Positions 6,439 through 62,019 of a DNA stretch of 64,000 nt are shown here, piece by piece. Below the pieces are notes generated by a model. The model saw only the letters and a list, made by a program, of their open reading frames with translations, searched no databases and was not told the origin of the DNA. Numbering within the stretch: position 1 is the stretch's first letter; each line of letters begins with the position of its first letter. Made by a program: the position numbers and the translations under genes. The DNA is from a virus (lineage: Duplodnaviria > Caudoviricetes), in the IMG/VR virus record IMGVR_UViG_3300037349_000099, positions 2,076 to 66,075 of that record. One strand, written 5' to 3'.

Positions 6439-6517
6439 ATTGCGGAAGTCTTGCTACAATGGGGGAGCCGGATGTTTCCGCACCCGGCTCATTCACAGCC
6501 GCCATAGGAGGGCAGCC

Positions 6518-7033
6518 ATGACACCCCACGAGCCAAATTATCGCACGATTCCGTTGACACGCGGCATGTGCGCCGTAGTGGACGCTAAAAACTTTGAAGA
6601 TCTCAATAAATGGAAGTGGTTCGCGCTAAAGGCCGTAAAGCGCGGGCGTGTCCATTTCTACGCCGCGCGCAGTACCTGCCACGCAATAAATGGGCCTGGC
6701 ACGGTGTTGATGCATCGTCACATTCTAGGGCTCCAGAAAGGTGATCGGCGGCAAGGTGACCATAGGGAACCCGCATTGACCCTCGTTAACGTCGAGGGAA
6801 ATCTACGAATCGCTACGTCCTCTCAAAATGCAGCTAACTCTGGGGTGCGCAAGAGCAACCTATGTGGGATCAAGGGCGTAGGTTTCTATAAGCCGACTGG
6901 TAAATGGAGAGCGATGATCGCCCCACAGGGGAAGGGTATAAATCTGGGATACTTTGCTACTCCCGAACTTGCTCAGGAGGCTTACCGCAAGGCAGCAGAG
7001 AAGTATTTTGGCGAATTTTCACGCACCAAATAA
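6518..7033 (+). CDS. HNH endonuclease with C-terminal AP2 domain
   Basis: IPLTRG..AVVD, MHRHILG...DH...NLRIAT..QN, KGV...GKWRA.I....LGYF.T.E.A..AY..AA..YFGEF. Confidence 0.92.
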   Translation: MTPHEPNYRTIPLTRGMCAVVDAKNFEDLNKWKWFALKAVKRGRVHFYAARSTCHAINGPGTVLMHRHILGLQKGDRRQGDHREPALTLVNVEGNLRIATSSQNAANSGVRKSNLCGIKGVGFYKPTGKWRAMIAPQGKGINLGYFATPELAQEAYRKAAEKYFGEFSRTK

Positions 7034-8293: not shown

Positions 8294-8905
8294 ATGCTGA
8301 CAAGATTTCCGCTCTGCTGGCCGGATGGTTGGCGCAGGACTCCCACCCATCAACAAAGGGATGCGCGATTCAAGCGCGATAAGCGATGGCTGACAATCTC
8401 CGATGGCGTTGGCCGCGTGATGACGGAATTGGAGAAGATGAACATTAGCTACCAAGACGTCATCATCTCCACCAACGTCCGCACTCGGCTGGACGGTCTA
8501 CCGCGCTCTGGTGAACCTGAACCATCAGACAAGGGCGTCGCCGTCTACTGGCGCAAGGGCCGCGATGGGCAGATGCAGTGCATGGCCATCGACATCTACA
8601 CGCTTGTTGCGGACAACCTTGGGGCCGTTGCGGCCACACTGGAGGCCATGCGGGCCATCGAGCGCCACGGCGGAGCCCAGGTGCAGGAGCGGACATTCCG
8701 GGGCTTTGCTGCCCTGCCGGAGAAGACCGGCCGCCACTGGACCGAGATTTTAGGCACCACCGAAAACGCCAACCGCCAACATATCGAGGACCAGTATCGG
8801 ATGCTGGCGAAGAAAGCGCACCCGGACACTCCAACCGGCAGCCATGAAGCCATGGCCGAACTCAACCGCGCCCGCGAGGAAGCACTGAAAGAAGTCTCAG
8901 GTTGA
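8294..8905 (+). CDS. Phage protein with C-terminal DnaJ J-domain
   Basis: FPLCWPDGW N-terminus, GFAALP, W.EILG...YR.LAKKAHPD...M.ELN.A.EEA. Confidence 0.88.
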   Translation: MLTRFPLCWPDGWRRTPTHQQRDARFKRDKRWLTISDGVGRVMTELEKMNISYQDVIISTNVRTRLDGLPRSGEPEPSDKGVAVYWRKGRDGQMQCMAIDIYTLVADNLGAVAATLEAMRAIERHGGAQVQERTFRGFAALPEKTGRHWTEILGTTENANRQHIEDQYRMLAKKAHPDTPTGSHEAMAELNRAREEALKEVSG

Positions 8906-20190: not shown

Positions 20191-23100
20191 TTATACCACC
20201 GGACCTACTGCCGGACCTTTGAATTTAGGCTTCGGATTCAAAGCGTCCGAGTAGGCTTTCTTCATCGTCACCTTTTGCTCCGCACTCATGTCGCTGTCGT
20301 CGTCAATAGTTCTCGCCTTGTGCCCAATCACCGGCCTGAGTTGTTTCTGCTCGTCCGGTGTGGCAGCAAGGTAGACGTTCAGCGCCTGCTCGTGATGCAG
20401 ATCCCGCGTGGCTGCGACGATGGGCTGCACTCTAGCCTGAAACCTTGCTTTAGCCAGGTCGCTCTCGTCCAAGATGTCAGCCGTCTTATAGGCGTCGATC
20501 ACCTTCTGATCGAACCCGGGCTTGCCTGTAGCTTTGGCTCGGTACATATCTTCGACAACATGCTTGGCATTGCGGCGGTCGGCCTCTCGCTGCGTCCTGG
20601 TGCCCGGCGTGTAGTTGGCGCGCTCGTAGTCCCGCGCCATGTTGACAGCCTTCGAGTTCTGGATGAAGGCGGGAGCTTGGTTGAAGCCGAAGAAACTCTC
20701 GGCAACTGGAGCCGGGTTATGGATGGCGGTCTGGATCATGGACCATGCGTTGTCTTGTGCGCCTCTCTCTTCGAGGAGATGGGCTGCTCCTGTGGCTGAG
20801 AACGGCAACTCCTGCTTTGCTGACCACCCTGCGAACTCTTCGGCCTGCTTGGGCGCTGAGTCGTCCGTGTGCCGTATCTCGGTGCGGTAAAAGTCTTGGT
20901 TGTTGATCGCTTGACCGATGACACTCCAGAGCGGCGCAATCTTGTTGATGACCGTCTGTTCCGGATGCTTGACGAAACTCACGATCTGGTCCGGGTATCC
21001 CGCGATGGAGTGCATGATACCGTGTGAGTCCTCGATGTAGAGGTAGTGCAGTGGGTCTTTGGGAAGATGCCCCGTGCAGAGAAACGTGCCCGCCGCTCCC
21101 AGGATCGCCGTGCAGAGGAACGAACTGAGGGCAAATGACATCCTCGGGGTGATCCTCGCCTCTTTCCCATGGCCGGTGGCGACAAGACCGGCAGCCTTCG
21201 CGGTGTCCACGATGGCTCCGCCGTAGATTCTCACGTCGCCATTGGTGTATCCAACCGCCCTGAATGTCAACTGCAGCGCATCTTTCAGCCCGCGAGGCCA
21301 GAAGCGATTCTCGTAAACGATCTGCCCGAACCTGTCGTCCACGGCGTCCCATGCCTCCTGCATACGCTCGCGGAGTTTTTCGGGTGTCCAGTTCTTTTTC
21401 TGCGCCTCTTCTAAAAGGTTGTGAGCCATCAGGTAGAAGGCTCCAATCTTCATCTTCGGCACCCAGAATTCAAGGACAGGCCACACGCCGGCTTGAAGCA
21501 GTGCGCCCGGCAGGGACTTCGCCTTATCCCAATTGGTGCCGCTGTTCCACGCATTGATTGCCTTCCGAATCGGACTCAACTCCAGAGTAGATGGAGCAAG
21601 CCTTCCGCCCGATCGCGCAATCCAGTCGGCCTCCTTCTCCATCTCCGGGTAGGTGCCGGGCTTCATATACTCGCGGGTTGCCTTCCATCCGTTCTTGATG
21701 GTCCGTACCAGAGACGGCAGGAGGGCGATTCCGGCCAGAGCGTTGCCAGCGGCCTTGACGGGCTTGCCCTGGAAGAGCTGCTCGACACCCAGGGAAACAT
21801 CAGATGCCGCCGCGTTGACGGTCGTAACCGTCGCGTGGAAGGCTGAGATGCCCAACTGCATAGCGTTGAGGTTATTGTTAGCCCAGCGCAGCGCGTCGAA
21901 TATCGCAGACCGGCCCGCGAGTCCCTTGGACACGAAGTTGTTGAACACCTTGGCTGCATCAGCCGGGGCCCAGTAGTGGCCGGTGATGACCAGAGCTTTG
22001 CCGCTGGCATCTTCTAAGTCTTCGATGGCAATGCTGGGGATGGGACGCTTGCCGCCCATGTAAGTCTTGTCGTAAGTCGCGCCCTCAACCTTCTGATCGT
22101 CGATCGTGGTGGCGCGGCGCCATACTGTGCCGATCTTGTCGTCGATTTTGTCCCAGCCTTCCGGCGCTTGCGTTCCGGCTCTGACAAACTTGGCTGTCCC
22201 CGAGTCCTTAATCACCTTCAATAACTGGTGCGCCATGATGAATTGGTCCATCTCGTAAATCTTCATCAGTGCGCCGCGGACAGGGTTCCATGTTGCCGGG
22301 GTGAGCCCGATGTCGATGCCGTCGCGCGTGGTGGGGATCTTCCGCTGCTTCCTGAATGACGCCTTGCCTTCTAGTGGGCGCTTGCCGACGCCCATGAACT
22401 TCTTAATCGTCTTGCGGGCTAGACTGGGGCGCTCCCACCAGTGGGCGAAGTAGTTGTCGATCCAGTCATTGATTGGACCAAAGCCCATGGCGTCGATGTA
22501 GTCCTTGCGCTCCTGATACGCCTTCTCAAGTATCCCGGCCAACTGCTGATCCTTCACACTGAGGTCGGCCACTGTCTTGCCGCCAACATGCTCCACAGCA
22601 TCGGCAAAGGCTAGAAAGTCAGCCCTGGGGCGCTTGTCCCATGCGTTCGACTCCTGCTCCAGCGCAGCCAGCGCGCGGGCCATGCGGCGGTCCATCTGGC
22701 CACGCTCCTCGCGCATGATAGCTTGCTGAGTCTTTCCGGGCGTGGGACCGTCGCCAGCCCACTGGTAGATGCCGCCAGCCATGCCGGGGAATAGTTGGTT
22801 GACAACTGCGGGGTTGAGGAAGCCGAAGGCGGAGAGGGTGCCGGAGTCGGGGAGGTTGGCGCCACGACCGCCCTGCAGGAACTTCTTGGCCGTGTCTTTC
22901 GGGCTGGAAGGTTCCGGACCATCCTCTACGTCGTCGCCCTCTTCCTCTTGTTCCTCTGCCGGCTCAGGCTCTGCGCTGGTATCGACCTCTGCTGCGGTCT
23001 CTTCCTTGTCCGCCTGCGAACCAGAGTTGACGTTGCCCAGACCGAGGCGCTTCTCAACCTCATCAAGATCGGCGCGGACCTTCTCCAGTTCCTTCTGCTC

Positions 23101-26100
23101 GGGGAACTCCTCGCGATCGGCGAGCTTCTGGAATTGGGGCTTGTCCTCTTCGTTGGCCGCAATCGACTTGACTTCGCGCGCAATATGCTTCGGGATGCTG
23201 CGCATATTGGCTTCAATGGAGCGCACGAGCGACTCCATCGTGTACTGAGGCGCGCGGTTGTTGTGGAAGTAACTGCTGGATTCCTCGAACTCCAGGTCAT
23301 AAGAGACGGAGGGAACGTCTATCCAGTGGGTCCCGTCCTTGCCGATGACATTAGGGTCATGCTCCTTGATGGTTCCCGTCGGATCAACCGATACCTCGAC
23401 CCCGTTTACCTTCATATAGAAGCGAACCCCGGGTATGGCCATCGCTTCGATGTACTCGCCCGCCGATTTGCGATCGGTGAACTTCTTGCCGTCAACCTCC
23501 ATTGTGAAGCCGTCGCCGTCCGGTCCCTTGGCCTTGTCGATGGCTGCCTGGGCCAACTCCATGCGAATAACGGCGCGCTTTGAGCTGGCTATGCTGCTAT
23601 CGATGCTGCGCACTCTGGAGTGCGCATCCCGCTTCGATGCCTCAAACCCGCGCTCCACGGTCTGCAACTGCGCCAGCTTCATTTCGAGGTCGTACTTGAG
23701 CTTGATGTCGGGATTGCCCGACGCGGCAACCTTCATCTCCTCCAGCGACATAACCATATCCGCGGCTGCATCGGTAATCGTGCGGCTGGCAGAACGTCCG
23801 GAAAGAATCTGCGAGAGGAACTCGGCTTTCGATTGCAATGTTTGAGCCATGTACGCGTCGAAACTGCGCTCGGTCAGGTAGTTGTAGATCCGCACCGACT
23901 TGTTCATGTTCCCTTGGCGCAGGATGCGACCCTCGCGCTGGGTGAGGTCGCCAGGCCTCCAGGTAAGGTCGATGTGATGGAGAGCTTTGAGGCGCTGCTG
24001 TGCGTTCGTACCTGCGCCCATGCGCTGCGTTGACCCCAGCAGGATACGGACGTCGCCAGCGTTCACCCGTTCAAACAAGGCTTGGCGTTTCGCCCTGGTG
24101 TTGTAGTCCCCGATGATGGCGATTTCCTCGGGCTTGACCCCGCCGTCGATCAACTTCTGCCGCATGTCTTTGTATAGGTTGAGGAGTTCGTTGTCCTTGT
24201 CGTCCGTCGCCCGGTACATATCGAGGAAGACCATTTGCGTGAGTTTATCTTCCTCGCCCGCACGGTGTTCCTTGAGGATTTGGCGGACGGCAACATTGAT
24301 CTTCGAATCAACCTCGTCCTTGATTGCAGCGTCCAGCAGGCGCAGGTCTGTGGCAGCCTTCCGGCCCTCGCTCGTGACCTTGAGCATGTTGTCTTCGTCG
24401 GGGCGCACACTACCGCTCCGGATGGCCTCCGCGCGCTGCATCAGGTCTTTGACAACCTCGTCGAGCTTCTCGGAGCCTGGGACCGTGATTACGATGGGCT
24501 TGCCACCTTCAAGCTCTGGCCGCTTTAGATTCAGGTCGGCCGCCGTCTTCACATCGGCAAAGGCGCGGAACATGCGCATCAACTCTGGCACGTTCTGGAA
24601 GCGAGCAAACTTGGACCGGGCCTTGAAGCTGCGCCCGTCTGCCGAGAGTTCCATCGCCGTGATGACGCTGCCGAAGTTGGCCGCCCAGTCGTCGAAGTAT
24701 TTGATTCCGGCGCGCTCCAGCACGTCTGGCGCAACATACTTCATCATCGTGTAGAGTTCGGCCATCGTGTTCTGTACGGGTGTTCCTGTGGCGAAGAAGA
24801 CGCCGCGGCCGTTGTTTACTTCCTGCAGGTACTGGAGTTTGGCCAGAAGACGGAAGGACCGTTTCGAGTTCGCCTGCTGCAATCCGGCAATGCGCTGCAT
24901 CTTCGTGAAGTATTTGAGGTTCTTGTACTCGTGCGCCTCGTCGATAAACAGGGCATCCACGCCGGTATCGTCGAACCCGATGGCCTTGTCGGCCTTGAGG
25001 TCGGAGAGTTCCTTCAACCTTTCCTTGAACTGGAGACGGGACTTCACCAACTGCTTGACCGTTTGGCTCTTGCGCTTCTGCTTGTCCGACGCTGCTTTCG
25101 CTTCGGCCTGTTCAATGGTCAATCCTGCGTAATCCGGGTCGTCGGCAATCGCGCCGCGCAGCGCATCGTCCAGTTGATCTATCTCGCCCTGGATCGTCTT
25201 CTTCTGGCGCTCGGGCGAGATGTCCATGAGGTTGAACTGGGAGTGGGGCAGGATGATGCAGTCGTAGTCGCCGGTCGCAATCTGGCTCATAATGCGCTGG
25301 CGGTTCTTCGAGTCGAAGTCTTTCTCGGTCGGCACAAGGATGTTCGCACCGGGGTAGAGAAAGAGAAACTCTTTGCGGAACTGGTCGACGATATGGTTGG
25401 GCACGGCGATCATTGGCTTCTTGAAGACGCCAGTGCGCCGGCCTTCCATAACCGCAGCGACCATTTCGAACGTCTTTCCAGCGCCAACCTCGTGCGCAAG
25501 CAGCGCGCGCCCGTCCTGAATCATGCGCCAGATGGCATTGACCTGGTGGGGTTCGAGCTTGATTTCCGGGTTCATGCCCGGGAAGGTGAGGAAACTGCCG
25601 TCGTACTCCTGCTCGGCCAGGTTGTTGAAAGCGTAGTTGTACGCCTTTTCCAGTGGCTCTTTCCAGTCCTTCGAGTTCAGTGCCCACTTCTGGAACTCCT
25701 GCCGGATACGCTCCTGCATGGCGCGGGCATTGGTGGTCTCATCGGCATTGAGTATCTGCTTCTTATCTACGATGTCGTAGATCGTGGTCTGCTTGAGATT
25801 TAGCGCGTCTTGCAACAGGTCCGCACCATGGATGCGCTGGGTAGCCCACTGGTTCGTGTTCTCCGGTGTGCGGGAGTTGTCGAGTTCCACGCTCCACGTT
25901 CCATCTGTGTATGTGAATGTGCCATCGCTCTTGAATGTGTCTTTGGCGAACTGCTCCAGGGCTGGGATGGGAATCCACGTTCCACCGAGCCGAACAGAAA
26001 TGCTGGTCGCCGGATCGTCGGTGATGTGGAGGAATGCAGGCTGCACCTTTTCCAGTGCATCGACGTTGGCCTGGTACTCTTTGTTGCCCTGGGCGACCGC

Positions 26101-29100
26101 TGCTTTGGCGTCGTCGAGTTTGGTCCGGACATAGCCAGAAAGGTACTTCTCGCGGGTTTGGTACTCGCCACTGATCGGGTCACGGAACAGCACACCAGCA
26201 TCTATCAGGCTCTGCGCAGCCTCCTTGGGCGTCTTGCCCTGGAGTTGCGCCATGAGGTCAACGTCGGGGTAGCCGCGCTCGGCAAGGACTTGCTGCAGAG
26301 CTTCGCCGGGGTCTTGAGAGATGGACGTGAGGGACTGCCGGGGGTAGATGGTGCGCTTGCGGAAGATGTCGGCGGGTGTCGATTCCTTCTTTGCCCGGTC
26401 GTAGTTCTCCAAGGCCAGCAGGCGAGGATAGTGCGGATCTTCATTGAAGATGCGGTTAGCCGTTGAGTTGACCAGCCCGTACTGCTTGACGAACGAGTTG
26501 TACTGCTTTTCGAGTTGCGCGCGGGAGTGGGCAATCTGCTTGTTCGATGCCTCATCGTCAGGCAGTGTCTTCATTTCGTAGAGCAACCGATTCATCGTCT
26601 CCCGCAACTTAACCATCGCCTTGATGCGCGAGGTTTTCGGGATGCTCTTGATCTTCCCCTTGTCCATGGCCGCCGGCGGATAGACAAGTTTCCCCTCCCG
26701 CCGCTGTTTGAGGATGCCCTTGTCGTCCACAACGTACTGATATTCCTGCACGTTGTCCTCAGCGTAGACGGCCTCGGTCTCTGCCTGGTTGGCGCCGGTC
26801 GGCTTCGGTGCCGTCTTGACGATGTTCTTGGGGATGCGGTCGAGGGCTTCTTTCAACAGGTCGGCGATTGGCCGCTCTGGTTTCTTCAAGGCGAATCGCT
26901 GGTTGCCGCGCATCTTTTTCGACGATACTGCGGTTCCAAGCATATTTTCTGGGTGCGCCAGATAATACTCGTTGAATGGATGCTCGTGCATTTTTCCCGG
27001 CTCCTGCTCAAGCGGGAACTTTGTAGGCACTGCTTTCATCCACGACTCGCCGCCGGGTTCCTCGCCTGGAAGCCGCTTGCGCAGGATGATGAGGTCGGTC
27101 GTTACGTCCGTGCCGGCGTTCGCCTTGAACGCGGAGGATGGAAGGCGGAAGGCGGAAACAAGGTCGGCCTGTCCTGCCAGGGCCTCACGAATGGCGGAAC
27201 TCTGCCGGTCCATGGTGCCCGTCGAAGTGATGAAAGCGACCAGCCCGCCGGGTTTCACCTTGTCCATGGACTTCACGAAAAAGTAATCGTGGAGCATGGC
27301 ATTGAGTTTGGGATAGTTGCGGTCGTAGACGTTGACTTCGAAGAATGGGACGTTGGAGATGGCGAGGTCCATCTCGTTGTTGGGCAGGATCAGGTCTTCG
27401 AATGGCTTATTGAATATCTGCGCCTCGGGGTAGAGGAGCTTAGAGATTCCAGCCGAGACCGTATCTTTGTCGTTTCCAACCGCCTGCACCTTGGAGCGGA
27501 TCTCGGGCGGCATCATGCCCAGGAAGTTGCCCACTCCCATGGCTGGCTCAAGCACGTTGCCGGACTTGAAGCCCATCTTCTTCACTGCATCCCACATGAA
27601 CCGGACCAGCTCGGGAGATGTGTAGTGAGCGTTGATGGTCGAGTCTTCGGCTTCCTTGTACTCGTCTGGCGTCAGGAGTTCCCTGAGCCGCTTGTTGGCC
27701 GCTCTCCACCGTTCGCGCTCACGCTTGTACTCGGGGGTCTCTGTGGCCTTGTTTTTCCAGTAGCGGGCCTGATAGTCGTAGCCGCCTTCGGGGCTGTAGT
27801 CCTCGGGCGATTCTTCTTCGCGGGACTGTTTGAGGTACTCCTCATTGAACACGCGCGAGAGCGCACCCCAGCCGACGTAATTGGCGAGCTTAGTCTTTTC
27901 GTCGTCTGTGGCTTTGCGGGGGTTCTGCTGGATGTCGCGGAGAATCTCAAGGGCTGCCATGTTGCCATCGAGCTTGGCGAGAGGACCGCCGGATATGGCC
28001 CAGTCCTCGGGATGCTCGTACCAGTCCTTGTTGCGCCTAGGGGTCGGCTTGCGGGATTCCTTCTCCGCTTCCTCTATTACTGGTCCTGCCGGGGAAAGAT
28101 CAATTCCCTCATCGCTTCCCGCCCCTGGTCCGGGTTGTGGCCGGCCGCTTCGTACTCTTGGAGCACCCGGACGCACGACAGGGCCGTGTTCTTTATCGCC
28201 TTCTGGAGATAGTTCTGATTTATCAGTTCCCTCACGAACGCTTTCCGGTGCTGGCGCCACTCCCGCTCTATCTCGGCCTCCAGTATCGGCAGCCGGGCGT
28301 CCTCCTCCGGTTTCACTTCGACTCGTGGGCTCATGGGGTGCCTCCGTGCTGGGTTTAGTTTCCTCCTTCTCCACAGATTTTTCAACAGGCTTCTCGACTC
28401 GACCCGCGCTGCTGATCCTCATGCCGGGATACTTCTCGGCCAGCAACTGCTCGGCATGGCGTCGGTTCTCGGCCTCGATCTGGACCGTCTTCGGGTGCGG
28501 ATCGCCAGCGTACTTCGAGACTTCGGCCTCGTAGGTGTGCATTTCCGGCTTCGCACCTAGCGGGCTCGTCCCGGCCATTGGCGCTACCTGGGGAGTCGGA
28601 GGCTTGTAGAAGGAGCGTGCGGGCTTCGCGGCACTGACCTTCCGTCCTGCTTCAACGTAAAGTTTGTTTGCCTCTGAGCGTGGAATGTCCAACTGCTTCG
28701 CAATCTCGTCCACGACCCCGCCAGGATTGAACCTCTCCATGTCCGGGTTTGCTTTGATTATTGCGGCAGCCTGAGAAACTTTGTCTTCTACTTCTTCTTT
28801 CCCTTCCCCACCGCCTTGCTGACCCAGTGGCTTTTCTTCGCCGGCGGCATGGGCATCTGCTGCTGGCTTCCGCTCATCGGCGGCGCCTGCGGGTTTGGCT
28901 CCGGCATTGGAGCCTGCTGGTTTTTCTTCTTGCGGAACATCGACGCTCCGCTGACTCGCTGTTTCTGCATCGGCATTTGGTTTGCCGCTGATCCCAGGTT
29001 TTGCTGCATTGTTGTTATTCCCTTCCGGCTGCGGTTCAGCCAATAGCTTGCCTGTGTTGCGCTCGACCGGCACAGCCCTGTCGTCGTACAGGGATACCAT

Positions 29101-31932
29101 GTGCGGGTCCTTCACATCAGTCACGTCCAGGCGCTTGCCGACGTGCTTCTCGGTCCAGTCCTGAATCGCCTTCTTGACCTTGCCGTCCTTGTCGTCGGCC
29201 ACGCGCGCGGTCAGGATCTTGACGTTGTTCCCCTCGGCCAGCCACTTCTTGATGCGGTCGACCATCGGCTGAATCGGTTCGCCTATGACGGTTGGACCCT
29301 TGAAGCCGTCGTAGTGGGCCAGCGTCCCGTCGAGGTCCACGCCGATCCACTTGTCGCCCTTGGCTTCGGGCTGGGCTGATTCGGCAGGCTTTGAGCCACC
29401 CTCTTCCACCTTGCCCGCAACTGGCTGATTCTGCGCGGGTGGGGACTGGACTGATTCTTGGAATAGTTTGCGCTCCGCTTCCGCGACCGCCGTTCCCCAT
29501 GCTTCGGTGTCGTCGGGATTCAGTCCACGGCTCAGGAGGTCGCTCTTGATCTTGCGATACTCCTCTGGGGTAATCTCTCGCTCCGCCTTCTTCTCTTCTG
29601 GCTTCAAACGCTCAAATGGCGCTGCTGGCCATGCGCGCCCGTCGTCGGTCTTGACCCCAGCAACCTTGCGCTTCGGATCAACGTGCGTCACAGTGCCCGG
29701 CTTCTTGCCGTCCATCAGAACGCGGTCGCCCTTCTTCGGGGTGAAGGGGGTTTCCTGTTTTGGCACATCATTTGAGGCGTCGGGCGTGGTAGATGAGTTG
29801 CGCTGGTTGAAGGACTCCATCGCGGCATCGTGCGCAGCCTTGACTAAGCTCGCGTACTGGCGATGCTGGTCCATCTTCCCAGCGATCCTTGCGCGCTCCC
29901 CTTTTTCGTAGTCGGGATGCGTCAGGTCATTGACCGCCGCAATCTCTTTCGGCACCACCTGGAGTTCCGCCGAGTTCCCGTCCGGCGTCTTGACCTGGAA
30001 CGTGTGCGACCGGAAGCCGTAAGGGTCGGACCCCTTCTCAAAGTTGTCCTGCTCGCGCACGACCTGAAAGCTGTCCTTGATCTTCTGCGCTACCTGATCG
30101 CGCGCCGCTGGTGAGTCCACGACGATCCGGCCGCCGAGGTAGTCGGGAATGGTTTCCGCCGGCTGCTTCTCCTGGTCCAGCTTCTCGGCCAGGTCCGCCG
30201 GAGCCTTCTTCTCGCGGATGCCCTCAACTTTTGCGCCCGGTATGCCTTGGACCGTCGCATTGGCCTGCCGCTCCAGCCACGGAGCCTGGGCCTGCGCCGC
30301 CTTCTGCAAGGTGGCAGGGTTATCCGTCGATTGCAGGATCTGGCGTCCGGTGTCGGGTTCGTGCTTGCCGATGGGCTGTGGCTGGTTCGTCGCCTGCGCT
30401 GTGGCTGGCTGGAGAGGCTTGGGGGCATCCTTGGGTGGTACGGGGCGCGCGGGGACGGACGCCATGATTGCCGCGGCGAGCGCCTTGGCGTCGGATGGCT
30501 TCGGCGTGCTGCCTTTGTCCGGTGCAACCTGGGCGGGTTCGGGCGAGAGAGGTTTGCCAGAGAGCGCATCGGCCGCCGTGGCAAGGTTGGCCTGCTGGGG
30601 CGTGTTGGGCGCTTTCCCGGTCTGGGTGTTACGCACTGCCTCATCGAGTAGAGAGGATACAGCAGCATGCGCGTCGGCTGCGCGGTTGGCTCCCTCCATA
30701 TCGCCGCTCTCGTGAGCGCGCCGACCCGTCTCGTCGATTGCGTTCAAGAGAGCTTGGTTTTCGGCTGGCGTCTGGCTTGTCACCTTTCCGCGATGGTCGG
30801 CAACTATCTGATCCAGGAGTGATTGTTCTGCGTTCTGCGCCTGTGGGACCGGGGGTTGTTCCGGTACCGGCTTGGGACCGGCGTGGATGGTGGTCCCTTG
30901 CTCGCTCTCCGGGCCTTGTAGGGTATCGAAGATGTCGGCGGCGGTCGGGGTAGGCGGCTTTGGCGTCGGCGTCGGCGCGACAGTTTCGGGAACTTCTGGT
31001 GCTCCGAGTGGCTTGCCGCTGAGGGCGTCGGATGCGGATTGAAGATTGGGAGGGGGAGATTGAGGTGTTGGCGCTGGACTCGGTGCAACCTGCTCAGGTA
31101 CAGGCGGCGCGGCGGGCGGCTGGTTGGCGTTGATGCCTTTGCCTGCGCGGACAATCTCATCGGTGGCGGCAAGGTTATCGAGGTTGGGTGTCATTGTCGG
31201 CCCGGCTGGGCGTGGACTTGTGGGCGGAGGCTGGCCGCGCAGTTCGGCGGCACGGGCATTGCGTAGCCCCTCCCAACCTCCCAAGTCACGCGCTCCGAGC
31301 AACGCCGCAGCAGCTTGTGGCGCTCCAACCGTTACGGCTGCGAGTGCATCGCTTTCGTTGCCTGCTCCCTCTCCGGGGTTGGCATTTTGGATGAAGCGAC
31401 CGGCAACCGGCACGGCTTGGATAGCATGAGCGATGCTGGAGTATGGGTCTCCGCCCCTATAGGCGTCTACCGCTTTTCCTGCCTCCCCAGTCGCCCGCAT
31501 GAACTCGCCACCGACTCCCTCCGCAACCTGCACGGCGGGACCGCCAAGAGCTTCGGCGGCATTCCTGAACGGATGCCCCTCGAGGTCTTCTATTCTCTGA
31601 TCCCGCATCAGATTGGACTCTGCCACCGTGGCAGGGAGTCCAAGGTTGTGAGCCACCTTACCGATGTAGCTAGGTTCCGACTGGTTCGCTACAGCCTGCT
31701 CCGCTGGCGAAAGCGGCAACTGCTTGTTGTTCGGGACTGGCACACCTGGCCGGTTCTCAATGTCCTGCTGATATTGACTCTGCGGCTGCGCGGGAGCCTG
31801 CGCTCGCTGTACGGGCGCTGCCTTCGCTGGCGCTGGACCTTGCAGGCTATAACCGGGAGGCGGAGGAGGAGGGTCGGAATCTTGGAGGTCATATCCCGCT
31901 GGAGGAGGAGGAATCGTTGCGGCTGAGCCCAC
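20191..31932 (-). CDS. Giant (3913 aa) DarB-like polyvalent ejection protein: RelA/SpoT-like + KOW + HAD + N6-DNA methylase + SNF2 helicase + C-terminal helical domain
   Basis: DYLGGRIV/GFRSH/ELQ/H..YE (~29880-30290); VDLDGTL/TAR/K/DD (~29050-29350); YTS/LEPAMG.G.F/NVPF (~26900-28000); HEVGAGKT/DEAH/QREGRILRQGN (~23700-25570). Follows the ejection genes. Confidence 0.9.
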   Translation of the reverse strand: MGSAATIPPPPAGYDLQDSDPPPPPPGYSLQGPAPAKAAPVQRAQAPAQPQSQYQQDIENRPGVPVPNNKQLPLSPAEQAVANQSEPSYIGKVAHNLGLPATVAESNLMRDQRIEDLEGHPFRNAAEALGGPAVQVAEGVGGEFMRATGEAGKAVDAYRGGDPYSSIAHAIQAVPVAGRFIQNANPGEGAGNESDALAAVTVGAPQAAAALLGARDLGGWEGLRNARAAELRGQPPPTSPRPAGPTMTPNLDNLAATDEIVRAGKGINANQPPAAPPVPEQVAPSPAPTPQSPPPNLQSASDALSGKPLGAPEVPETVAPTPTPKPPTPTAADIFDTLQGPESEQGTTIHAGPKPVPEQPPVPQAQNAEQSLLDQIVADHRGKVTSQTPAENQALLNAIDETGRRAHESGDMEGANRAADAHAAVSSLLDEAVRNTQTGKAPNTPQQANLATAADALSGKPLSPEPAQVAPDKGSTPKPSDAKALAAAIMASVPARPVPPKDAPKPLQPATAQATNQPQPIGKHEPDTGRQILQSTDNPATLQKAAQAQAPWLERQANATVQGIPGAKVEGIREKKAPADLAEKLDQEKQPAETIPDYLGGRIVVDSPAARDQVAQKIKDSFQVVREQDNFEKGSDPYGFRSHTFQVKTPDGNSAELQVVPKEIAAVNDLTHPDYEKGERARIAGKMDQHRQYASLVKAAHDAAMESFNQRNSSTTPDASNDVPKQETPFTPKKGDRVLMDGKKPGTVTHVDPKRKVAGVKTDDGRAWPAAPFERLKPEEKKAEREITPEEYRKIKSDLLSRGLNPDDTEAWGTAVAEAERKLFQESVQSPPAQNQPVAGKVEEGGSKPAESAQPEAKGDKWIGVDLDGTLAHYDGFKGPTVIGEPIQPMVDRIKKWLAEGNNVKILTARVADDKDGKVKKAIQDWTEKHVGKRLDVTDVKDPHMVSLYDDRAVPVERNTGKLLAEPQPEGNNNNAAKPGISGKPNADAETASQRSVDVPQEEKPAGSNAGAKPAGAADERKPAADAHAAGEEKPLGQQGGGEGKEEVEDKVSQAAAIIKANPDMERFNPGGVVDEIAKQLDIPRSEANKLYVEAGRKVSAAKPARSFYKPPTPQVAPMAGTSPLGAKPEMHTYEAEVSKYAGDPHPKTVQIEAENRRHAEQLLAEKYPGMRISSAGRVEKPVEKSVEKEETKPSTEAPHEPTSRSETGGGRPAADTGGRDRAGVAPAPESVREGTDKSELSPEGDKEHGPVVRPGAPRVRSGRPQPGPGAGSDEGIDLSPAGPVIEEAEKESRKPTPRRNKDWYEHPEDWAISGGPLAKLDGNMAALEILRDIQQNPRKATDDEKTKLANYVGWGALSRVFNEEYLKQSREEESPEDYSPEGGYDYQARYWKNKATETPEYKRERERWRAANKRLRELLTPDEYKEAEDSTINAHYTSPELVRFMWDAVKKMGFKSGNVLEPAMGVGNFLGMMPPEIRSKVQAVGNDKDTVSAGISKLLYPEAQIFNKPFEDLILPNNEMDLAISNVPFFEVNVYDRNYPKLNAMLHDYFFVKSMDKVKPGGLVAFITSTGTMDRQSSAIREALAGQADLVSAFRLPSSAFKANAGTDVTTDLIILRKRLPGEEPGGESWMKAVPTKFPLEQEPGKMHEHPFNEYYLAHPENMLGTAVSSKKMRGNQRFALKKPERPIADLLKEALDRIPKNIVKTAPKPTGANQAETEAVYAEDNVQEYQYVVDDKGILKQRREGKLVYPPAAMDKGKIKSIPKTSRIKAMVKLRETMNRLLYEMKTLPDDEASNKQIAHSRAQLEKQYNSFVKQYGLVNSTANRIFNEDPHYPRLLALENYDRAKKESTPADIFRKRTIYPRQSLTSISQDPGEALQQVLAERGYPDVDLMAQLQGKTPKEAAQSLIDAGVLFRDPISGEYQTREKYLSGYVRTKLDDAKAAVAQGNKEYQANVDALEKVQPAFLHITDDPATSISVRLGGTWIPIPALEQFAKDTFKSDGTFTYTDGTWSVELDNSRTPENTNQWATQRIHGADLLQDALNLKQTTIYDIVDKKQILNADETTNARAMQERIRQEFQKWALNSKDWKEPLEKAYNYAFNNLAEQEYDGSFLTFPGMNPEIKLEPHQVNAIWRMIQDGRALLAHEVGAGKTFEMVAAVMEGRRTGVFKKPMIAVPNHIVDQFRKEFLFLYPGANILVPTEKDFDSKNRQRIMSQIATGDYDCIILPHSQFNLMDISPERQKKTIQGEIDQLDDALRGAIADDPDYAGLTIEQAEAKAASDKQKRKSQTVKQLVKSRLQFKERLKELSDLKADKAIGFDDTGVDALFIDEAHEYKNLKYFTKMQRIAGLQQANSKRSFRLLAKLQYLQEVNNGRGVFFATGTPVQNTMAELYTMMKYVAPDVLERAGIKYFDDWAANFGSVITAMELSADGRSFKARSKFARFQNVPELMRMFRAFADVKTAADLNLKRPELEGGKPIVITVPGSEKLDEVVKDLMQRAEAIRSGSVRPDEDNMLKVTSEGRKAATDLRLLDAAIKDEVDSKINVAVRQILKEHRAGEEDKLTQMVFLDMYRATDDKDNELLNLYKDMRQKLIDGGVKPEEIAIIGDYNTRAKRQALFERVNAGDVRILLGSTQRMGAGTNAQQRLKALHHIDLTWRPGDLTQREGRILRQGNMNKSVRIYNYLTERSFDAYMAQTLQSKAEFLSQILSGRSASRTITDAAADMVMSLEEMKVAASGNPDIKLKYDLEMKLAQLQTVERGFEASKRDAHSRVRSIDSSIASSKRAVIRMELAQAAIDKAKGPDGDGFTMEVDGKKFTDRKSAGEYIEAMAIPGVRFYMKVNGVEVSVDPTGTIKEHDPNVIGKDGTHWIDVPSVSYDLEFEESSSYFHNNRAPQYTMESLVRSIEANMRSIPKHIAREVKSIAANEEDKPQFQKLADREEFPEQKELEKVRADLDEVEKRLGLGNVNSGSQADKEETAAEVDTSAEPEPAEEQEEEGDDVEDGPEPSSPKDTAKKFLQGGRGANLPDSGTLSAFGFLNPAVVNQLFPGMAGGIYQWAGDGPTPGKTQQAIMREERGQMDRRMARALAALEQESNAWDKRPRADFLAFADAVEHVGGKTVADLSVKDQQLAGILEKAYQERKDYIDAMGFGPINDWIDNYFAHWWERPSLARKTIKKFMGVGKRPLEGKASFRKQRKIPTTRDGIDIGLTPATWNPVRGALMKIYEMDQFIMAHQLLKVIKDSGTAKFVRAGTQAPEGWDKIDDKIGTVWRRATTIDDQKVEGATYDKTYMGGKRPIPSIAIEDLEDASGKALVITGHYWAPADAAKVFNNFVSKGLAGRSAIFDALRWANNNLNAMQLGISAFHATVTTVNAAASDVSLGVEQLFQGKPVKAAGNALAGIALLPSLVRTIKNGWKATREYMKPGTYPEMEKEADWIARSGGRLAPSTLELSPIRKAINAWNSGTNWDKAKSLPGALLQAGVWPVLEFWVPKMKIGAFYLMAHNLLEEAQKKNWTPEKLRERMQEAWDAVDDRFGQIVYENRFWPRGLKDALQLTFRAVGYTNGDVRIYGGAIVDTAKAAGLVATGHGKEARITPRMSFALSSFLCTAILGAAGTFLCTGHLPKDPLHYLYIEDSHGIMHSIAGYPDQIVSFVKHPEQTVINKIAPLWSVIGQAINNQDFYRTEIRHTDDSAPKQAEEFAGWSAKQELPFSATGAAHLLEERGAQDNAWSMIQTAIHNPAPVAESFFGFNQAPAFIQNSKAVNMARDYERANYTPGTRTQREADRRNAKHVVEDMYRAKATGKPGFDQKVIDAYKTADILDESDLAKARFQARVQPIVAATRDLHHEQALNVYLAATPDEQKQLRPVIGHKARTIDDDSDMSAEQKVTMKKAYSDALNPKPKFKGPAVGPVV
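28077..28334 (-). CDS. Nested out-of-frame 85-aa protein (TnpV-like pattern) inside the giant gene
   Basis: GGAGG-N6-ATG at 28334; amphipathic helical sequence (EREWRQHR..FV.EL.....L...RELIFP), while the main frame is R/G/P-rich linker. Confidence 0.65.
   Translation of the reverse strand: MSPRVEVKPEEDARLPILEAEIEREWRQHRKAFVRELINQNYLQKAIKNTALSCVRVLQEYEAAGHNPDQGREAMRELIFPRQDQ
28788..29009 (-). CDS. Second nested out-of-frame ORF (73 aa, Met/Pro/Lys-rich)
   Basis: GGAAGGGA purine tract ~9 nt before ATG; confined to the linker just after the HAD domain. Confidence 0.4.
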   Translation of the reverse strand: MQQNLGSAANQMPMQKQRVSGASMFRKKKNQQAPMPEPNPQAPPMSGSQQQMPMPPAKKSHWVSKAVGKGKKK

Positions 31933-49005: not shown

Positions 49006-49281
49006 CTACTTGCTCCCCTTGTTGGCTTGTTGCTCTTTCCAGCGCGTCTCAGCGCGTTCGCGGAACTCTCGGCGCAGATCGGCGCCTAACTTGCGATGAG
49101 CCTTCTGCGGTTCAATCGGCTTTTCGTTTGGATCCGCGATCGGCGGAGCCGCGGTGATTTGCTTGTTCAGATCGAGCAACTCAGCATTGACGCTCAGTAA
49201 TTCCTCGATGCGCTGCTCCCGATCCAGCAGCCGCTCCTCGGCTAGTTCCAACCGCAAGCGGGATACCCAGGGCCATCTCAT
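49006..49281 (-). CDS. Small coiled-coil protein
   Basis: MRWPWVSR start overlapping the KTSC stop; precedes portal. Confidence 0.65.
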   Translation of the reverse strand: MRWPWVSRLRLELAEERLLDREQRIEELLSVNAELLDLNKQITAAPPIADPNEKPIEPQKAHRKLGADLRREFRERAETRWKEQQANKGSK

Positions 49282-49481
49282 CAGAGTTCCTTGAACTTTC
49301 CGCGAATGTGCTTGTTGTAAAACTCGCCTTTGCTCGATGCGGCTTGAAATGCCTCCCATACCGACCCCGGAACGCCCAGGTGGACAATCCTCTTGCCCTG
49401 ATTGGTCGTCACGGTCAGCAGCCCGCCGGAGAAGTCGATGCTGGCCACCCATGAGCTATCAACTTGGATTGGGTTTGCCAT
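49281..49481 (-). CDS. KTSC-domain protein
   Basis: SS.V.SI.F....L.V....G....GVP..VW..F..ASSKG.FYN.HIRG.F. Confidence 0.88.
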   Translation of the reverse strand: MANPIQVDSSWVASIDFSGGLLTVTTNQGKRIVHLGVPGSVWEAFQAASSKGEFYNKHIRGKFKEL

Positions 49482-49484
49482 GGC

Positions 49485-49931
49485 TTAGAAATACTCCACC
49501 AGTTCGATTGTGGTGCCTGTGCCGGTTAGCGAACTGACGTAGAAGAGCAGCGTTGCCGTCGTAGGTCCAATCGCGGCAGACTGAGTGTTCCCAGCTCCAC
49601 CGATCGCATCTCCACATGGTCCATGCTCGGAAATGTGGTGCCAATTTTCAAAGAATGGAAACTCGCCAGGCTCATTCGTAGTCGAGTACGCCGGCCGCTG
49701 GAAGATGGTCGTGAATCCAGTGGCGCTGCCGTCATTGGGGATCTTGACCTGGAATCCCTCAGCAGACGCGGCAGCTCCGGCTTTTGTCACGATGCTCTCT
49801 TGGAACCGCCATGCGCGCACAGGGCCAGTTGCGTAGACGGGAATGAAAGCTGGATTAGCACCATCGCCGGGAATGTCAATTAGTCGGCGGGTCAGATTTG
49901 GACTGCCTGGAATCGGTGGAATAGCTGGCAT
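49485..49931 (-). CDS. Hypothetical beta-rich protein
   Basis: AAGGAG RBS, ATG 49931. Confidence 0.65.
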   Translation of the reverse strand: MPAIPPIPGSPNLTRRLIDIPGDGANPAFIPVYATGPVRAWRFQESIVTKAGAAASAEGFQVKIPNDGSATGFTTIFQRPAYSTTNEPGEFPFFENWHHISEHGPCGDAIGGAGNTQSAAIGPTTATLLFYVSSLTGTGTTIELVEYF

Positions 49932-50055
49932 GTGACTCCTTTGCTGAACGTCGTTTGAAAGGCCGGAAGAGTTCACTTGAAACACTAAAGGGCGCTCGGT
50001 TAAGAACGCCCCTCAATGGCTCTGGCGATTCTCCGCGGCCTCCTTTCGGGATGAT

Positions 50056-50568
50056 TTAAGCCTGCGCCCTCGCCAGCCACTCCGCGAGGTATGGCTCGTC
50101 TGCCGGGTTCACAACGACAATTTGCCGGTAGCGTGCGCAGCGCCCCTTGATGAACGTGGCGACCAATGCGACCTGATCTACGCTGTTGGCCGCTGTGGCT
50201 GTCTTCGGTCCCCACAGGCCATCCTCTGCGATAAACGGAGCCACCTTGCGGACCACGTTGACGGACTCCTGTAGGAGCTTAATCGCAACCCCAGAGCCCT
50301 CGTTTACGCCGCAGTCGAAGACGCGCTTCTGGATCTCGATGCCAAGCTGCGCCAGCCATTGATTCCAGAAGCATCTCCGGTAGAACGCAGCTACGGCGGC
50401 CGGACGCTCGGCTTGGGGAAGCGCGGCGATCCGGGCGAAATCTTCCGGCCATTCTTCCGAGTTGATGCCGGACAAGACTTGGCCTTTATTGTCGGATGTC
50501 ACAGCATAGGCAAGACGTGGGTCTTCCCACTGCATCGTCCACGCTAGGCATCTAAGGAAATCGTCCAT
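50056..50568 (-). CDS. Endolysin, GH108-like lysozyme with peptidoglycan-binding domain
   Basis: F...L...M.WE...D..G....GIN, FY...FW, FDCGVN.G...AIKLLQ, DG.WGPKT, YL..WL.R. Confidence 0.88.
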   Translation of the reverse strand: MDDFLRCLAWTMQWEDPRLAYAVTSDNKGQVLSGINSEEWPEDFARIAALPQAERPAAVAAFYRRCFWNQWLAQLGIEIQKRVFDCGVNEGSGVAIKLLQESVNVVRKVAPFIAEDGLWGPKTATAANSVDQVALVATFIKGRCARYRQIVVVNPADEPYLAEWLARAQA

Positions 50569-50580
50569 TGTTGCCTCGAT

Positions 50581-50762
50581 GTGCTTTGCGCGGGGCGGGC
50601 CGGATTTGAACCAGCGACCTTCCCGTTACTGACAGGATGCTCTAAGCAGGCTGAGCTACCGCCTCCGCGCAAACTTGTTTACAGCGTGCTTTGCGCGGGC
50701 CGGCAGTAAACATCTGCAAGATTAAAGAAGGCCGTACCTTCTCCCGCGCAAACCTTGTTTAC
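50581..50762. repeat. Tandem pair of cassettes GTGCTTTGCGCGGG...CCGCGCAAAC(C)TTGTTTAC
   Basis: Unit 1 at 50581-50682 contains the tRNA-like body; unit 2 at 50686-50762 contains two small hairpins. Confidence 0.8.
50591..50665 (-). tRNA. Degenerate tRNA-like gene (nominal anticodon AGT), no CCA
   Basis: TAGCTCAG...GAGC D-arm, TCCTG/CGGGA anticodon stem, GCTGG-TTCAAAT-CCGGC T-arm. Lacks U33 and G19; A2:C71 mismatch. Confidence 0.65.
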
Positions 50763-51121
50763 GCCGCCGTGGCCGCTGCCCCTGGGGTTGGTGATGCAGC
50801 CGCCGGAATGGCGTTCAGGCCGGCCACTACGCCGTTGATGACGGCAGTCAATTGAGTTGGCGTGTACTGCGGGAACTGAGCGGCTACGGCCTGAACCACA
50901 AGTGCCAGTTTTTGCGCTCCAGTGCCGTTCTGTTGCCCCGCTGCAATCGCGACGGCCTCTGCCTTCGTCACTTCCGCCAGAACCGCGTTGTAGAGGATTC
51001 CGATTCCGGGAGCGAGCGCGTCCACGAACGGCTCGGCTTCGGTTGCAACGGTGATTGCGCCGCCAAAGAAACGTTTGAGGCCATTTCCAATATCGCTGAG
51101 AATTGAAGTGAAACTCGCCAT
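50759..51121 (-). CDS. Holin-like/lysis-region protein
   Basis: AE......GTGAQKLALV pattern of LLH-type holins; next to the endolysin. Confidence 0.55.
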   Translation of the reverse strand: MASFTSILSDIGNGLKRFFGGAITVATEAEPFVDALAPGIGILYNAVLAEVTKAEAVAIAAGQQNGTGAQKLALVVQAVAAQFPQYTPTQLTAVINGVVAGLNAIPAAASPTPGAAATAA

Positions 51122-51144
51122 GCTTTGAGCCTCCTCTGGCTCGG

Positions 51145-51480
51145 TTACGGTTTGGTAGGGTTTGCAGCAACCGCCCTCGGATCGACAGGCTCAAGCTGCG
51201 CGGGAACTTCCACTTTCGTTGTGGACGGCGGGAAGGCGGCCAGAACGGTGGGATTTTGGGGGGTAAGGTTTAGGTGGTATACGCTGGCGGTAGCAACCAT
51301 CGCGGCACCAATCACAGTCGCAATCCAGTAGTGTCGAGATTCGTTAAACACTCCGGTTGACACAAAAGACTGCGCCTGAGCATAGAGGGTCGTTCCTAGC
51401 GCGGTGCTGAACGCCACAAACCAAGGATTGTTGTGAAGTTTCAGCCAAAGTTTGGATATAAAGTTCACCGTGCCCTCCAT
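51145..51480 (-). CDS. Putative holin (2 TM)
   Basis: Two hydrophobic helices; lysis cluster. Confidence 0.55.
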   Translation of the reverse strand: MEGTVNFISKLWLKLHNNPWFVAFSTALGTTLYAQAQSFVSTGVFNESRHYWIATVIGAAMVATASVYHLNLTPQNPTVLAAFPPSTTKVEVPAQLEPVDPRAVAANPTKP

Positions 51481-51598
51481 GTTACCCGCTTCGCAAGCGG
51501 CTTGCAGTACGCGCAAGGTATCAACCCTGCGCTGCTCATGTAGTGGCCGCGCCCGAAGCACTCAGGACAGCCGAAAAGCCAAATTTGGATGCGGCGGA

Positions 51599-51907
51599 TC
51601 ATGTGCTCTCGACCGCAGGCTCAATCTCCTGCTTGGTGACCGAACGAGCGTTTAGCGCCACCAAAATCACATGATCGTTCTTCACGTGAATCGGACAGCG
51701 AAGCGTCCAGTGAACGTCCTCCCCCTTCGGCGGATCGTCCGGGAATATCTGCATCGGCGTAGTCACGCCCACCTTAGCGCAAAAGCTGCATGTCGCCGGA
51801 ATCCATGGCTGGTGCCTGATTGAATCAACGAATTGGGGTGGCGTGGTCAAATGCGCGTCCTCCAGTGTGACGGGTAGCGGACGGAAGAGAATGTCCCCTC
51901 TGGCCAA
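51599..51907 (-). CDS. Small zinc-binding hypothetical protein
   Basis: CSFC...CPIH. Confidence 0.5.
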   Translation of the reverse strand: MARGDILFRPLPVTLEDAHLTTPPQFVDSIRHQPWIPATCSFCAKVGVTTPMQIFPDDPPKGEDVHWTLRCPIHVKNDHVILVALNARSVTKQEIEPAVEST

Positions 51908-61333: not shown

Positions 61334-61421
61334 CGGTCGCTCCTGGAGCCTTGTAGAGCCTGTTTTTGATTACAATTACTCGTCGTGGGCCGGTTTGACG
61401 CTGCTCTGCTCCAACCAGCCC

Positions 61422-61883
61422 CTAGCCGCGGGAAGCAGCAGAAACCCCGGCGCCGACCTCTCTCTGTTGGATGCCACGCCGCTCGAGCTGGCTCATGCCG
61501 GAGCCAAGGGGGACGAGCTGCATTGACCCTCTGACGCCCTTCCAGTGGCGCGGATCGACAAAAGCGGCCACGTTCTGGGCCTTGGCGTCTCCCACCCAGC
61601 GCAGCATCCCGAGCTTAACCATCCGCTCGATCTCCTTGCGCGTGTGGTGCGCGTGTGTGCAGCCTGGACCGAAGCATGGCTGGCTGATTGCATACTCTTC
61701 GAGCCATCCTGCATCCCTGGTCGAGAGCAGGCACACCCGCCGGCGTTGCTTGGCCGCTCCACGGATCCGGCTGTTGAGGCTCTGCTCGGGCTGCTTGCGC
61801 TTCTGGCCATCATGCCGGTACACCCGGCCACGAACATGAGTGATTACACGAAAGCCGGTCGTCACAGTCTCAACGTGAGCCAT
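61422..61883 (-). CDS. Hypothetical basic protein, first gene of the late region
   Basis: GGAGG RBS before ATG 61883; C....C.H.H motif. Confidence 0.65.
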   Translation of the reverse strand: MAHVETVTTGFRVITHVRGRVYRHDGQKRKQPEQSLNSRIRGAAKQRRRVCLLSTRDAGWLEEYAISQPCFGPGCTHAHHTRKEIERMVKLGMLRWVGDAKAQNVAAFVDPRHWKGVRGSMQLVPLGSGMSQLERRGIQQREVGAGVSAASRG

Positions 61884-61896
61884 GAGCCTCCAAAGC

Positions 61897-61925
61897 AAAA
61901 GGGGAGAAGCCGAAGCTCCTCCCCC
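61897..61925 (-). terminator. Terminator hairpin with UUCG loop
   Basis: GGGGAGGAGC-TTCG-GCTTCTCCCC-TTTT on the - strand. Confidence 0.7.
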
Positions 61926-62019
61926 GTTTAGCTGCTGGTCCCTTGCCACCCCACTCGATTCGACCATCGAGACATTCAACGGAGTTCAGCGTCTCCAGCC
62001 TGCGAAATGGGGTACTGTC

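Follow-up and report, generated by a model that had tools for sequence, protein, structure and literature searches.

Tandem structured-RNA units in a phage late operon and a candidate family of exchangeable small-RNA cassettes

Codon supplementation is the usual reading of phage tRNA genes, joined lately by that of nuclease-resistant replacements, and phage tRNAs whose anticodon-loop changes evade tRNA-targeting defenses have been reported (van den Berg et al. 2023, PMC10264068). Forest and peat soil has yielded polycistrons of irregular tRNA-like sequences, or allo-tRNAs, probably from Acidobacteria (Mukai et al. 2017, PMC5389517); the irregular tRNAs were judged to be possibly charged but unused in translation, or regulatory, and were associated with mobile elements (PMC5389517; review, PMC7609411). 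T4-type phages carry regulatory cassettes termed PeSL (Arbiol et al. 2010, PMC2839356). Presented here are two tandem units, U1 and U2, on the minus strand of a 64-kilobase (kb) stretch of DNA (the window) from a 66-kb IMG/VR virus record, IMGVR_UViG_3300037349_000099, which was present in many peat metagenome runs. U2 is a tRNA-shaped gene, and it lies in a frame of leader, closing helix, and tail that is common to non-tRNA bodies in unrelated phages; its anticodon arm is expendable in nature. Literature searches turned up no conserved leader-helix-tail frame around variable phage small RNAs, a result limited by the searches and not proof of absence; as far as they reach, the cassette family has not been described before.

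Two tandem units in one frame

U1 (50762-50686) and U2 (50682-50581) were located in tandem between an open reading frame (ORF) of 120 amino acids (aa; 50759-51121) and an endolysin gene (50056-50568), all on the minus strand. Both units start with the leader GTAAACAAG, to which U1 adds one G, and continue with TTTGCGCGG; at the far end stand the closing complement, CCGCGCAAA, and the tail GCAC. The shared closing helix is 9 to 10 base pairs (bp) long. In U1, the leader with its added G (50753-50762; part of direct repeat D4) is followed by the 5' strand of the helix, which folds and is 100% complementary to the 3' strand over 10 nucleotides (nt; 50752-50743 versus 50699-50690; repeat-finder pair I8), and the tail occupies 50689-50686 (D2 and I8, 50686-50699). 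In U2, the leader (50674-50682) is followed by the 5' strand TTTGCGCGG (50665-50673) and then by a bulged or mismatched A at 50664; the helix pairs 50673-50665 with 50593-50585 over 9 bp, and the tail lies at 50584-50581 (D2 and I7, 50581-50593). Direct repeats between the units included D2 (18 nt, 94% identity, spacing of 105) as well as D4 and D7. A preliminary description of this locus had proposed two tandem minus-strand units with a shared leader, stem, and tail, and on this point the sequence and the repeat finder agree. Folding also bore out the two hairpins claimed for the U1 body (50700-50742), the first of the GAAGG/CCTTC type and the second a GCAG/CTGC hairpin with a 7-nt loop.

The feature is real and nonrandom. 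Against shuffled controls, the fold of the whole region had a z score of -3.69, with scores of -3.0 for U1 alone (50685-50753) and -4.1 for U2 alone. The 15-nt word of leader plus helix, with up to three mismatches allowed, had five matches in the window against 0.91 expected, the single exact one being U2. The leader word did not recur elsewhere in the window, and a genome-wide promoter or signal was ruled out on that ground.

The loop region of the second U1 hairpin was complementary to the leader word of U2 (50703-50712 versus 50676-50685; repeat-finder pair I10) and, over 7 nt, to the leader of U1 itself. With this complementarity, a loop-leader pseudoknot could form, or the two units could pair with each other; no equivalent was present in the units of two further contigs (L002 and L124) introduced below.

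The body of U2 was called tRNA-Thr(agt) by ARAGORN (50590-50665, minus strand) and matched the Rfam tRNA family RF00005 with 47.3 bits (gathering score, 29; E value, 5.5e-07 over the whole window), as the preliminary description would lead one to expect. Its details were also confirmed: a cloverleaf with a canonical T arm, an anticodon loop reading T-C-AGT-A-A with C at position 33 in place of U33, a D loop with GC where GG is usual (G18-C19), no encoded CCA, and a 9-bp pairing of leader with trailer beyond a bulged A. The bulge (A50664) may alternatively be read as an A:C mismatch at position 2:71. The Levitt-type 15:48 pair and the U8 and A14 positions were intact. No Rfam family besides tRNA scored well at E values up to 10 on 50400-50950, and the exclusion of a YrlA-type Y RNA was therefore reasonable; none of the cassette units, from the window or from L002 and L124, had an Rfam family other than tRNA. 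The absence of a Ro60 gene likewise stood, with TROVE unmatched among the 45 window ORFs scanned with Pfam.

The frame in two other lineages

Scans with the leader-plus-helix word recovered the frame in two more contig types. The first, L002, is a 20-kb viral contig with two tandem units (UA and UB) just upstream of the large-terminase gene, and contigs L131 and L138 carried sequence identical to it. The second, L124, is a 7-kb metagenome contig with one unit, located after an ORF preceded by Erf and HNH genes. The family thus comprised five units in three lineages. Apart from one weak match, no proteins were common to the three contigs, and comparison of their DNA gave only tblastx noise outside the frame. 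The contexts also differed, with the units standing before the endolysin gene in the window, before the large terminase in L002, and after the ORF of the Erf module in L124.

In an alignment of the five units (A1), the leader and the helix core were invariant, and the tail was GCAC in the window and TTCAA in L002 and L124. In all three lineages, the first unit's leader contributed its TAA as the stop codon of the upstream ORF (in the window, 50761-50759, inside the U1 leader). The frame is accordingly modeled as a leader of 8 to 9 nt, predicted to be single stranded and starting with the stop codon that ends the gene before it (G-TAA-ACAAG), a closing helix, or clamp, of 8 to 11 bp (TTTGCGYRG/CYRCGCAA), and a short tail. 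Stop-codon read-through into the cassette was considered; the leader TAAs were in frame in L002 (spacing of 114) and out of frame in the window (spacing of 80), and the idea was dropped because of the latter.

The bodies inside this frame were diverse. As a tRNA, UA scored 49.5 bits, its 7-bp acceptor stem being formed by the clamp; its D loop had GG intact, and in place of an anticodon loop it carried a 24-nt insert forming a GAAA-capped hairpin (z score, -5.6). Both U2 and UA fit the standard 7/5 acceptor/T-stem model with 5-nt variable regions. The insert in UA did not form the bulge-helix-bulge motif of an archaeal-type intron, and this explanation was rejected. UB folded into a four-way junction resembling a cloverleaf (z score, -1.1), and the L124 body folded into a long, very stable hairpin (z score, -4.5) and is possibly a pseudoknot. 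Four of the five units therefore folded far better than their shuffles, UB being the exception.

Conservation of the shared stem, proposed earlier from the window alone, held across the three unrelated lineages and included two compensatory pair changes in one unit. Eight of the nine helix pairs were formed in all five units, and in UA two adjacent pairs were changed on both sides. Helix cells were paired in 93.3% of cases, compared to 31 to 67% when the partner strand was slid, which points to pairing across the body rather than between neighboring units. The covariation score was reached by 19 of 500 shuffles, which is weak statistically.

These results bear on whether the conserved word acts as DNA, as an operator or as a recombination or attachment site with an AAAC-AA-GTTT core, the tRNA-like part being copied from a host tRNA gene and serving integration. 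The start of leader plus helix does form an imperfect 14-bp palindrome, and phage integration sites often copy tRNA genes. However, a protein operator would have no need of a helix that covaries across the body, the word did not recur in the window, the other units enclose bodies other than tRNA genes, and no integrase was found nearby or among the ORFs scanned. A DNA-level site is accordingly regarded as highly improbable.

On the minus strand of L002, a 10-nt direct repeat flanked the two-unit array, with 7 nt recurring between the units (2170-2183, 2056-2069, and 1917-1930). It resembles a scar left by insertion where the flanking ORFs once overlapped stop to start. No direct repeat bracketed the cassettes in the window, and none was clear in L124.

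Searches for further members were largely negative. The viral-contig scan with the leader-plus-helix word returned at least 118 stretches; among the matches listed were 121 motif instances, of which only four had the closing strand (two from the window's own copy and two from L002). One of two viral-contig stretches with a tRNA-sized gap pattern (L075) was judged a chance match. The metagenome scan returned 24 stretches, the only real ones being L124 and the L002-identical L131 and L138. Three of the 18 stretches from the genome scan passed the 7-nt closing test but were judged to be chance, with further pairs and the tail absent in the stretches printed. A small-gap pattern gave 18 stretches, including two identical AT-rich, coding-like matches also judged to be chance, and the U2 5' word gave a single match, in coding sequence without a tRNA. 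A looser descriptor run over the DNA collected added candidates that were all rejected on reading. GenBank phages yielded no match to the frame. A 20/21 match in Rhizobium phages lacked the closing strand and lay in a promoter-like spacer, and a jumbo-phage match was an ordinary tRNA-Pro. Against the same phages, the L002 units matched only the T arms of Caulobacter phage tRNAs, and the L124 unit was unmatched.

Accessory status, natural variants, and neighboring genes

The cassettes are accessory. Relatives were represented by 11 loci from phages with 80 to 97% identical portal proteins, 7 of which extend far enough upstream of the portal gene; in none of the 11 was there a tRNA (ARAGORN), an Rfam match at the gathering score, or the leader word. 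DNA similarity between the window and its relatives ran only as far as the end of the endolysin gene. L185 was the closest of them (97% identical portal), and here a gene for a GH24-like lysozyme followed the preceding ORF after a 5-nt spacer. Because similarity stops at the endolysin gene and the lysozyme of L185 differs, the cassettes probably arrived with a swapped lysis module or into it. The upstream ORF had weak homology to its positional counterpart in L185 (E value, 0.004 over 19 aa), and L185 is therefore not a strict empty site. Comparison of L185 (1-1400) with the window (50000-51200) showed the lysis module swapped at this junction, with the GH24-like lysozyme replacing the GH108-like enzyme.

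Metagenome contigs of four runs were compared over 49900-51300. Record 23 of DNA run X4 (638 letters; depth, 15) matched 50485-51127 with 6 substitutions and 7 gap positions, and all of the listed differences fell within 50613-50646. With these differences applied, C19 was deleted and the next base became G, restoring GG in the D loop, and the anticodon arm was a net 5 nt shorter, with a 3-bp stem and a GNRA-type loop. ARAGORN found no tRNA in this variant. Record 14 of DNA run X3 followed the endolysin side to 50598 and continued with 11 letters equal to 50704-50714; it lacked exactly one 105-nt period (U2), and records 15 and 16 of the same run carried both units. Contigs from RNA libraries (X16 and X17) covered only 50490-50625 (X16 record 4), that is, part of U2 and none of U1. 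One X4 contig matched from 50590 upward and had 52 unrelated letters on the endolysin side, a possible sign of a haplotype in which a different sequence follows U2 directly at its 3' edge.

That U2 functions as a phage tRNA-Thr(AGU), perhaps carrying inosine in place of A34, and aids ACN decoding or escapes an anticodon nuclease, its extra stem being a processing intermediate, can be argued from the covariance score, the intact T arm, the Levitt-type pair, and U8/A14. Threonine codons are also frequent in the tail-fiber gene, and nuclease-resistant phage tRNAs with anticodon-loop changes are documented (PMC10264068). Nevertheless, a decoding tRNA is unlikely because U33 and G19 are lost and the ends are sealed in a 9-bp helix, because the anticodon arm is missing in one haplotype and the whole of U2 in another, and because the sister unit UA has no anticodon loop. 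The A2:C71 mismatch, the absence of a tRNA from all 11 related loci, and codon usage (ACT, 11.2 per thousand, compared to 26.8 for ACC, in 18 ORFs with 13,128 codons) also stand against it. The earlier conclusion that U2 does not translate was thus upheld, and its probability of doing so is put very low; the features listed suggest instead an anticodon-independent tRNA mimic. The acceptor/T-arm stack and the D arm are common to U2, its X4 variant, and UA, and these form the part of a tRNA that is read by end-processing and shape-recognizing proteins.

The same variants are relevant to a selfish, nonautonomous DNA element resembling miniature inverted-repeat transposable elements or repetitive extragenic palindromic (REP) elements, with junk cargo: U2 would be a decaying captured tRNA gene, U1 a more decayed copy, and the frame conserved through recent transfer. 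Such an element would account for the 9-bp inverted strands at the unit ends detected by the repeat finder, the presence/absence polymorphism with its clean one-period deletion, the differing insertion contexts, the direct repeat around the L002 array and between its units, the 4 to 5 more bases shared by U1 and U2 inside the 3' strand (D2), and the defects of U2 (C33, C19, and the A:C mismatch), which resemble decay. Decay would not, however, be expected to leave compensatory changes that preserve helix pairing, anticodon-arm changes that give neat tetraloop-capped stems rather than random damage, or an intact D-loop GG in the X4 variant and UA. Moreover, the leader and tail are asymmetric and not inverted repeats, a target duplication is absent in the window and not clear in L124, and no transposase is linked. 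A selfish element with junk cargo is therefore considered unlikely, if clearly less so than a decoding tRNA.

Around the cassettes, the downstream endolysin ORF (50056-50568) has a GH108-like N-terminal part and a PG_binding_3 domain (E value, 2e-07); it matched the endolysin family PHROG 315 (5e-19), and its match to Glyco_hydro_108 (0.001) was just below the cutoff. A GAGG Shine-Dalgarno sequence a few bases past the U2 tail belongs to this gene. The upstream 120-aa ORF gave no match in family searches, so the "lysis cluster" named in the preliminary description holds on the endolysin side, with the upstream ORF unproven as a holin. A translation-coupled switch that exposes the endolysin start was unsupported because the Shine-Dalgarno sequence was unpaired in the default fold. 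Promoter and terminator scanning of 49900-51700 predicted no sigma-70-like promoter and two terminator-like sites, both outside the units; no intrinsic terminator was present in or beside U1 and U2.

Two protein links had been raised as speculation. The small ORF with a KTSC domain is real (49281-49481, minus strand), but nothing connects its product to the cassettes. For the "RelA-like" protein, the RelA_SpoT match was subthreshold (22.4 bits against a cutoff of 27; residues 576 to 660), lay within a giant ORF about 20 to 30 kb from the cassettes, and had nothing connecting it to them. That ORF (20191-31932, minus strand; 3,913 aa) matched ResIII, SNF2, and Helicase_C and looks like a giant multidomain virion or antidefense protein. 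Elsewhere in the window were small ORFs with a subthreshold AP2 domain (6410-7033, plus strand) and a DnaJ domain (8294-8905, plus strand), together with RecT, exonuclease, SbcC-like, and DnaB-type replication and recombination genes; most structural ORFs had no PHROG match. An Rfam match to CyVA-1 RNA (61380-61459, minus strand; 43.4 bits, barely over the gathering score of 41.4) overlapped the 3' end of ORF 61422-61979, and the cassette-like frame was absent there.

Proposed role and comparison with known systems

The reading preferred here places U1 and U2 in a small family of small-RNA cassettes that are accessory and horizontally exchanged, each a compact structured RNA body within the conserved leader-clamp-tail frame. 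The bodies would be interchangeable, and at least two of them appear to be tRNA-derived mimics in which the acceptor, D, and T arms are retained while the anticodon arm varies or disappears. The cassettes would be cotranscribed with the flanking late genes, which fits the lack of a promoter or terminator of their own. Host RNases may then excise them at or near the clamp, by cleavage of the RNase P/Z type where the clamp is the acceptor stem and of the RNase III/E type where the helix is longer. The freed RNAs might work in trans, as stable decoys or as ligands of host proteins recognizing the tRNA shape or other folds, counterdefense being the most likely use, and recombination through the repeated frame could produce gain, loss, and swapping of cassettes. 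Bacterial RNase P favors U at position -1 and A at position -4, and the cut that RNase Z makes in precursors lacking CCA follows the discriminator and preferably precedes a U; UA, with its conserved leader and tail, presumably fits both rules. Taken as a whole, with exchangeable cassettes on a conserved clamp that are cotranscribed, excised, and active as stable RNAs, most plausibly as decoys, this reading is tentatively given a probability of about 0.45. A conserved RNA-level frame with exchangeable cargo that is not a working tRNA is more probable than that whole, and the decoy role taken separately is much less probable.

Several observations weigh against it. The family consists of only three lineages and five units, and hence the covariation rests on one unit (UA). 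The structure of UB was not significant (z score, -1.1). U1, UB, and the L124 body are not tRNA-like, and "tRNA mimic" therefore does not cover the family. The C19 of U2 in the window should make the D/T-loop elbow, on which a tRNA mimic depends, less stable, and pairing of leader to trailer is expected to hinder both RNase P and RNase Z. The X4 variant comes from a single contig of depth 15, with two of its six substitutions unlisted and an ambiguous gap placement, and its inserted C beside the T stem may disturb that stem. X16 record 4 spans the 3' boundary of U2 unprocessed, although it may include DNA, and such contigs can show neither RNA ends nor, with certainty, transcription. Comparison of the proteins of the three contigs found no conserved partner protein beside the cassettes.

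A rival reading is of units that act only in cis, as intercistronic punctuation of the mRNA, cleavage sites, or 3'-end stabilizers of the upstream message, with any excised RNA having no function in trans. Models for such elements are the RNase III sites of T7, REP elements, and organellar t-elements. The start of the units at the preceding stop codon in all three lineages, the lack of their own promoter or terminator, the strong closing helices, and the tRNA-like shapes, which are processing signals, are all consistent with a role of this kind. For punctuation, however, a simple hairpin would suffice; the diverse, elaborate bodies, the tandem copies, the retained D and T arms, and the GNRA-capped replacements of the anticodon arm would not be needed, and at this junction the genes of close relatives are separated by 5 nt, with no element between them. 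A purely cis-acting role is thus possible but rather improbable. Exchangeable cassettes acting in trans remain the preferred reading.

If the RNAs are excised and active, phages would have a modular means of carrying small structured RNAs and exchanging them, comparable at the RNA level to protein morons and antidefense genes, and the frame would be a natural stabilizing scaffold of possible use in RNA expression. A stronger version, in which peat and soil phages share a plug-in RNA scaffold that begins with the stop codon of a gene, moves among unrelated phages by recombination, and displays interchangeable RNAs (among them anticodon-less tRNA mimics and pseudoknot-like folds) excised as antidefense decoys for host proteins binding tRNA or other RNA shapes, the rapidly changing anticodon arm being the trace of an arms race, is held to be doubtful. 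The units also carry a warning, as tRNA calls in viral metagenomes by ARAGORN or Rfam can be mimics.

Among known RNAs, the mascRNA of MALAT1 is reportedly a tRNA-shaped module in a longer transcript that is cut by tRNA-end-processing enzymes, and the t-elements of plant mitochondria are said to be tRNA-like processing elements. Both resemble the cassettes in being tRNA-shaped modules within transcripts with reduced or irrelevant anticodon arms. They differ in being eukaryotic or organellar, single, and not mobile and in having no leader-clamp-tail frame. Bacterial Y RNAs of the YrlA type, attributed to Chen et al. 2014, are said to have a tRNA-like domain closed by a long terminal helix. The likeness lies in a noncoding RNA with such a domain and such a helix; unlike YrlA, U2 has the normal order of tRNA arms, only tRNA matches in Rfam, and no TROVE/Ro60 partner among the window ORFs scanned.

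Like the cassettes, PeSL elements have short repeated motifs with a stem-loop that flank accessory modules, and recombination inserts, deletes, and replaces these modules between relatives. A loss of this repeat-mediated kind was seen in X3 record 14, in which exactly one 105-nt period is missing. PeSL elements place a sigma-70 promoter and a terminator around protein genes, neither of which was matched at the cassettes (49900-51700), whereas in the cassettes the halves of the motif pair across the cargo and the cargo is a small structured RNA. The nuclease-evading phage tRNAs share with U2 a phage-borne tRNA shape and an unusual anticodon loop, and a conflict with host defense is plausible for both. 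They are, however, functional decoding tRNAs that replace cleaved host tRNAs. U2, in contrast, is without U33 and G19 and has its ends closed in a helix; the anticodon arm can be dispensed with or is absent in variants, and there are sister units that do not resemble tRNAs.

Closest to the cassettes among published systems are the allo-tRNA polycistrons, likewise tandem noncanonical tRNA-like genes from peat and soil, some of them with Thr-type anticodons. Allo-tRNAs have 8/4 or 9/3 acceptor/T-stem geometry, G-1, extra loops, and long variable arms and occur near toxin-antitoxin genes. Neither U2 nor UA showed an 8/4 or 9/3 geometry, a long variable arm, or a G-1 or extra loop; the geometry of U2 is 7/5, lengthened by 9 bp, and the unit is part of a phage late operon. 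The available part of the allo-tRNA text does not mention a shared leader-helix-tail frame or non-tRNA bodies.

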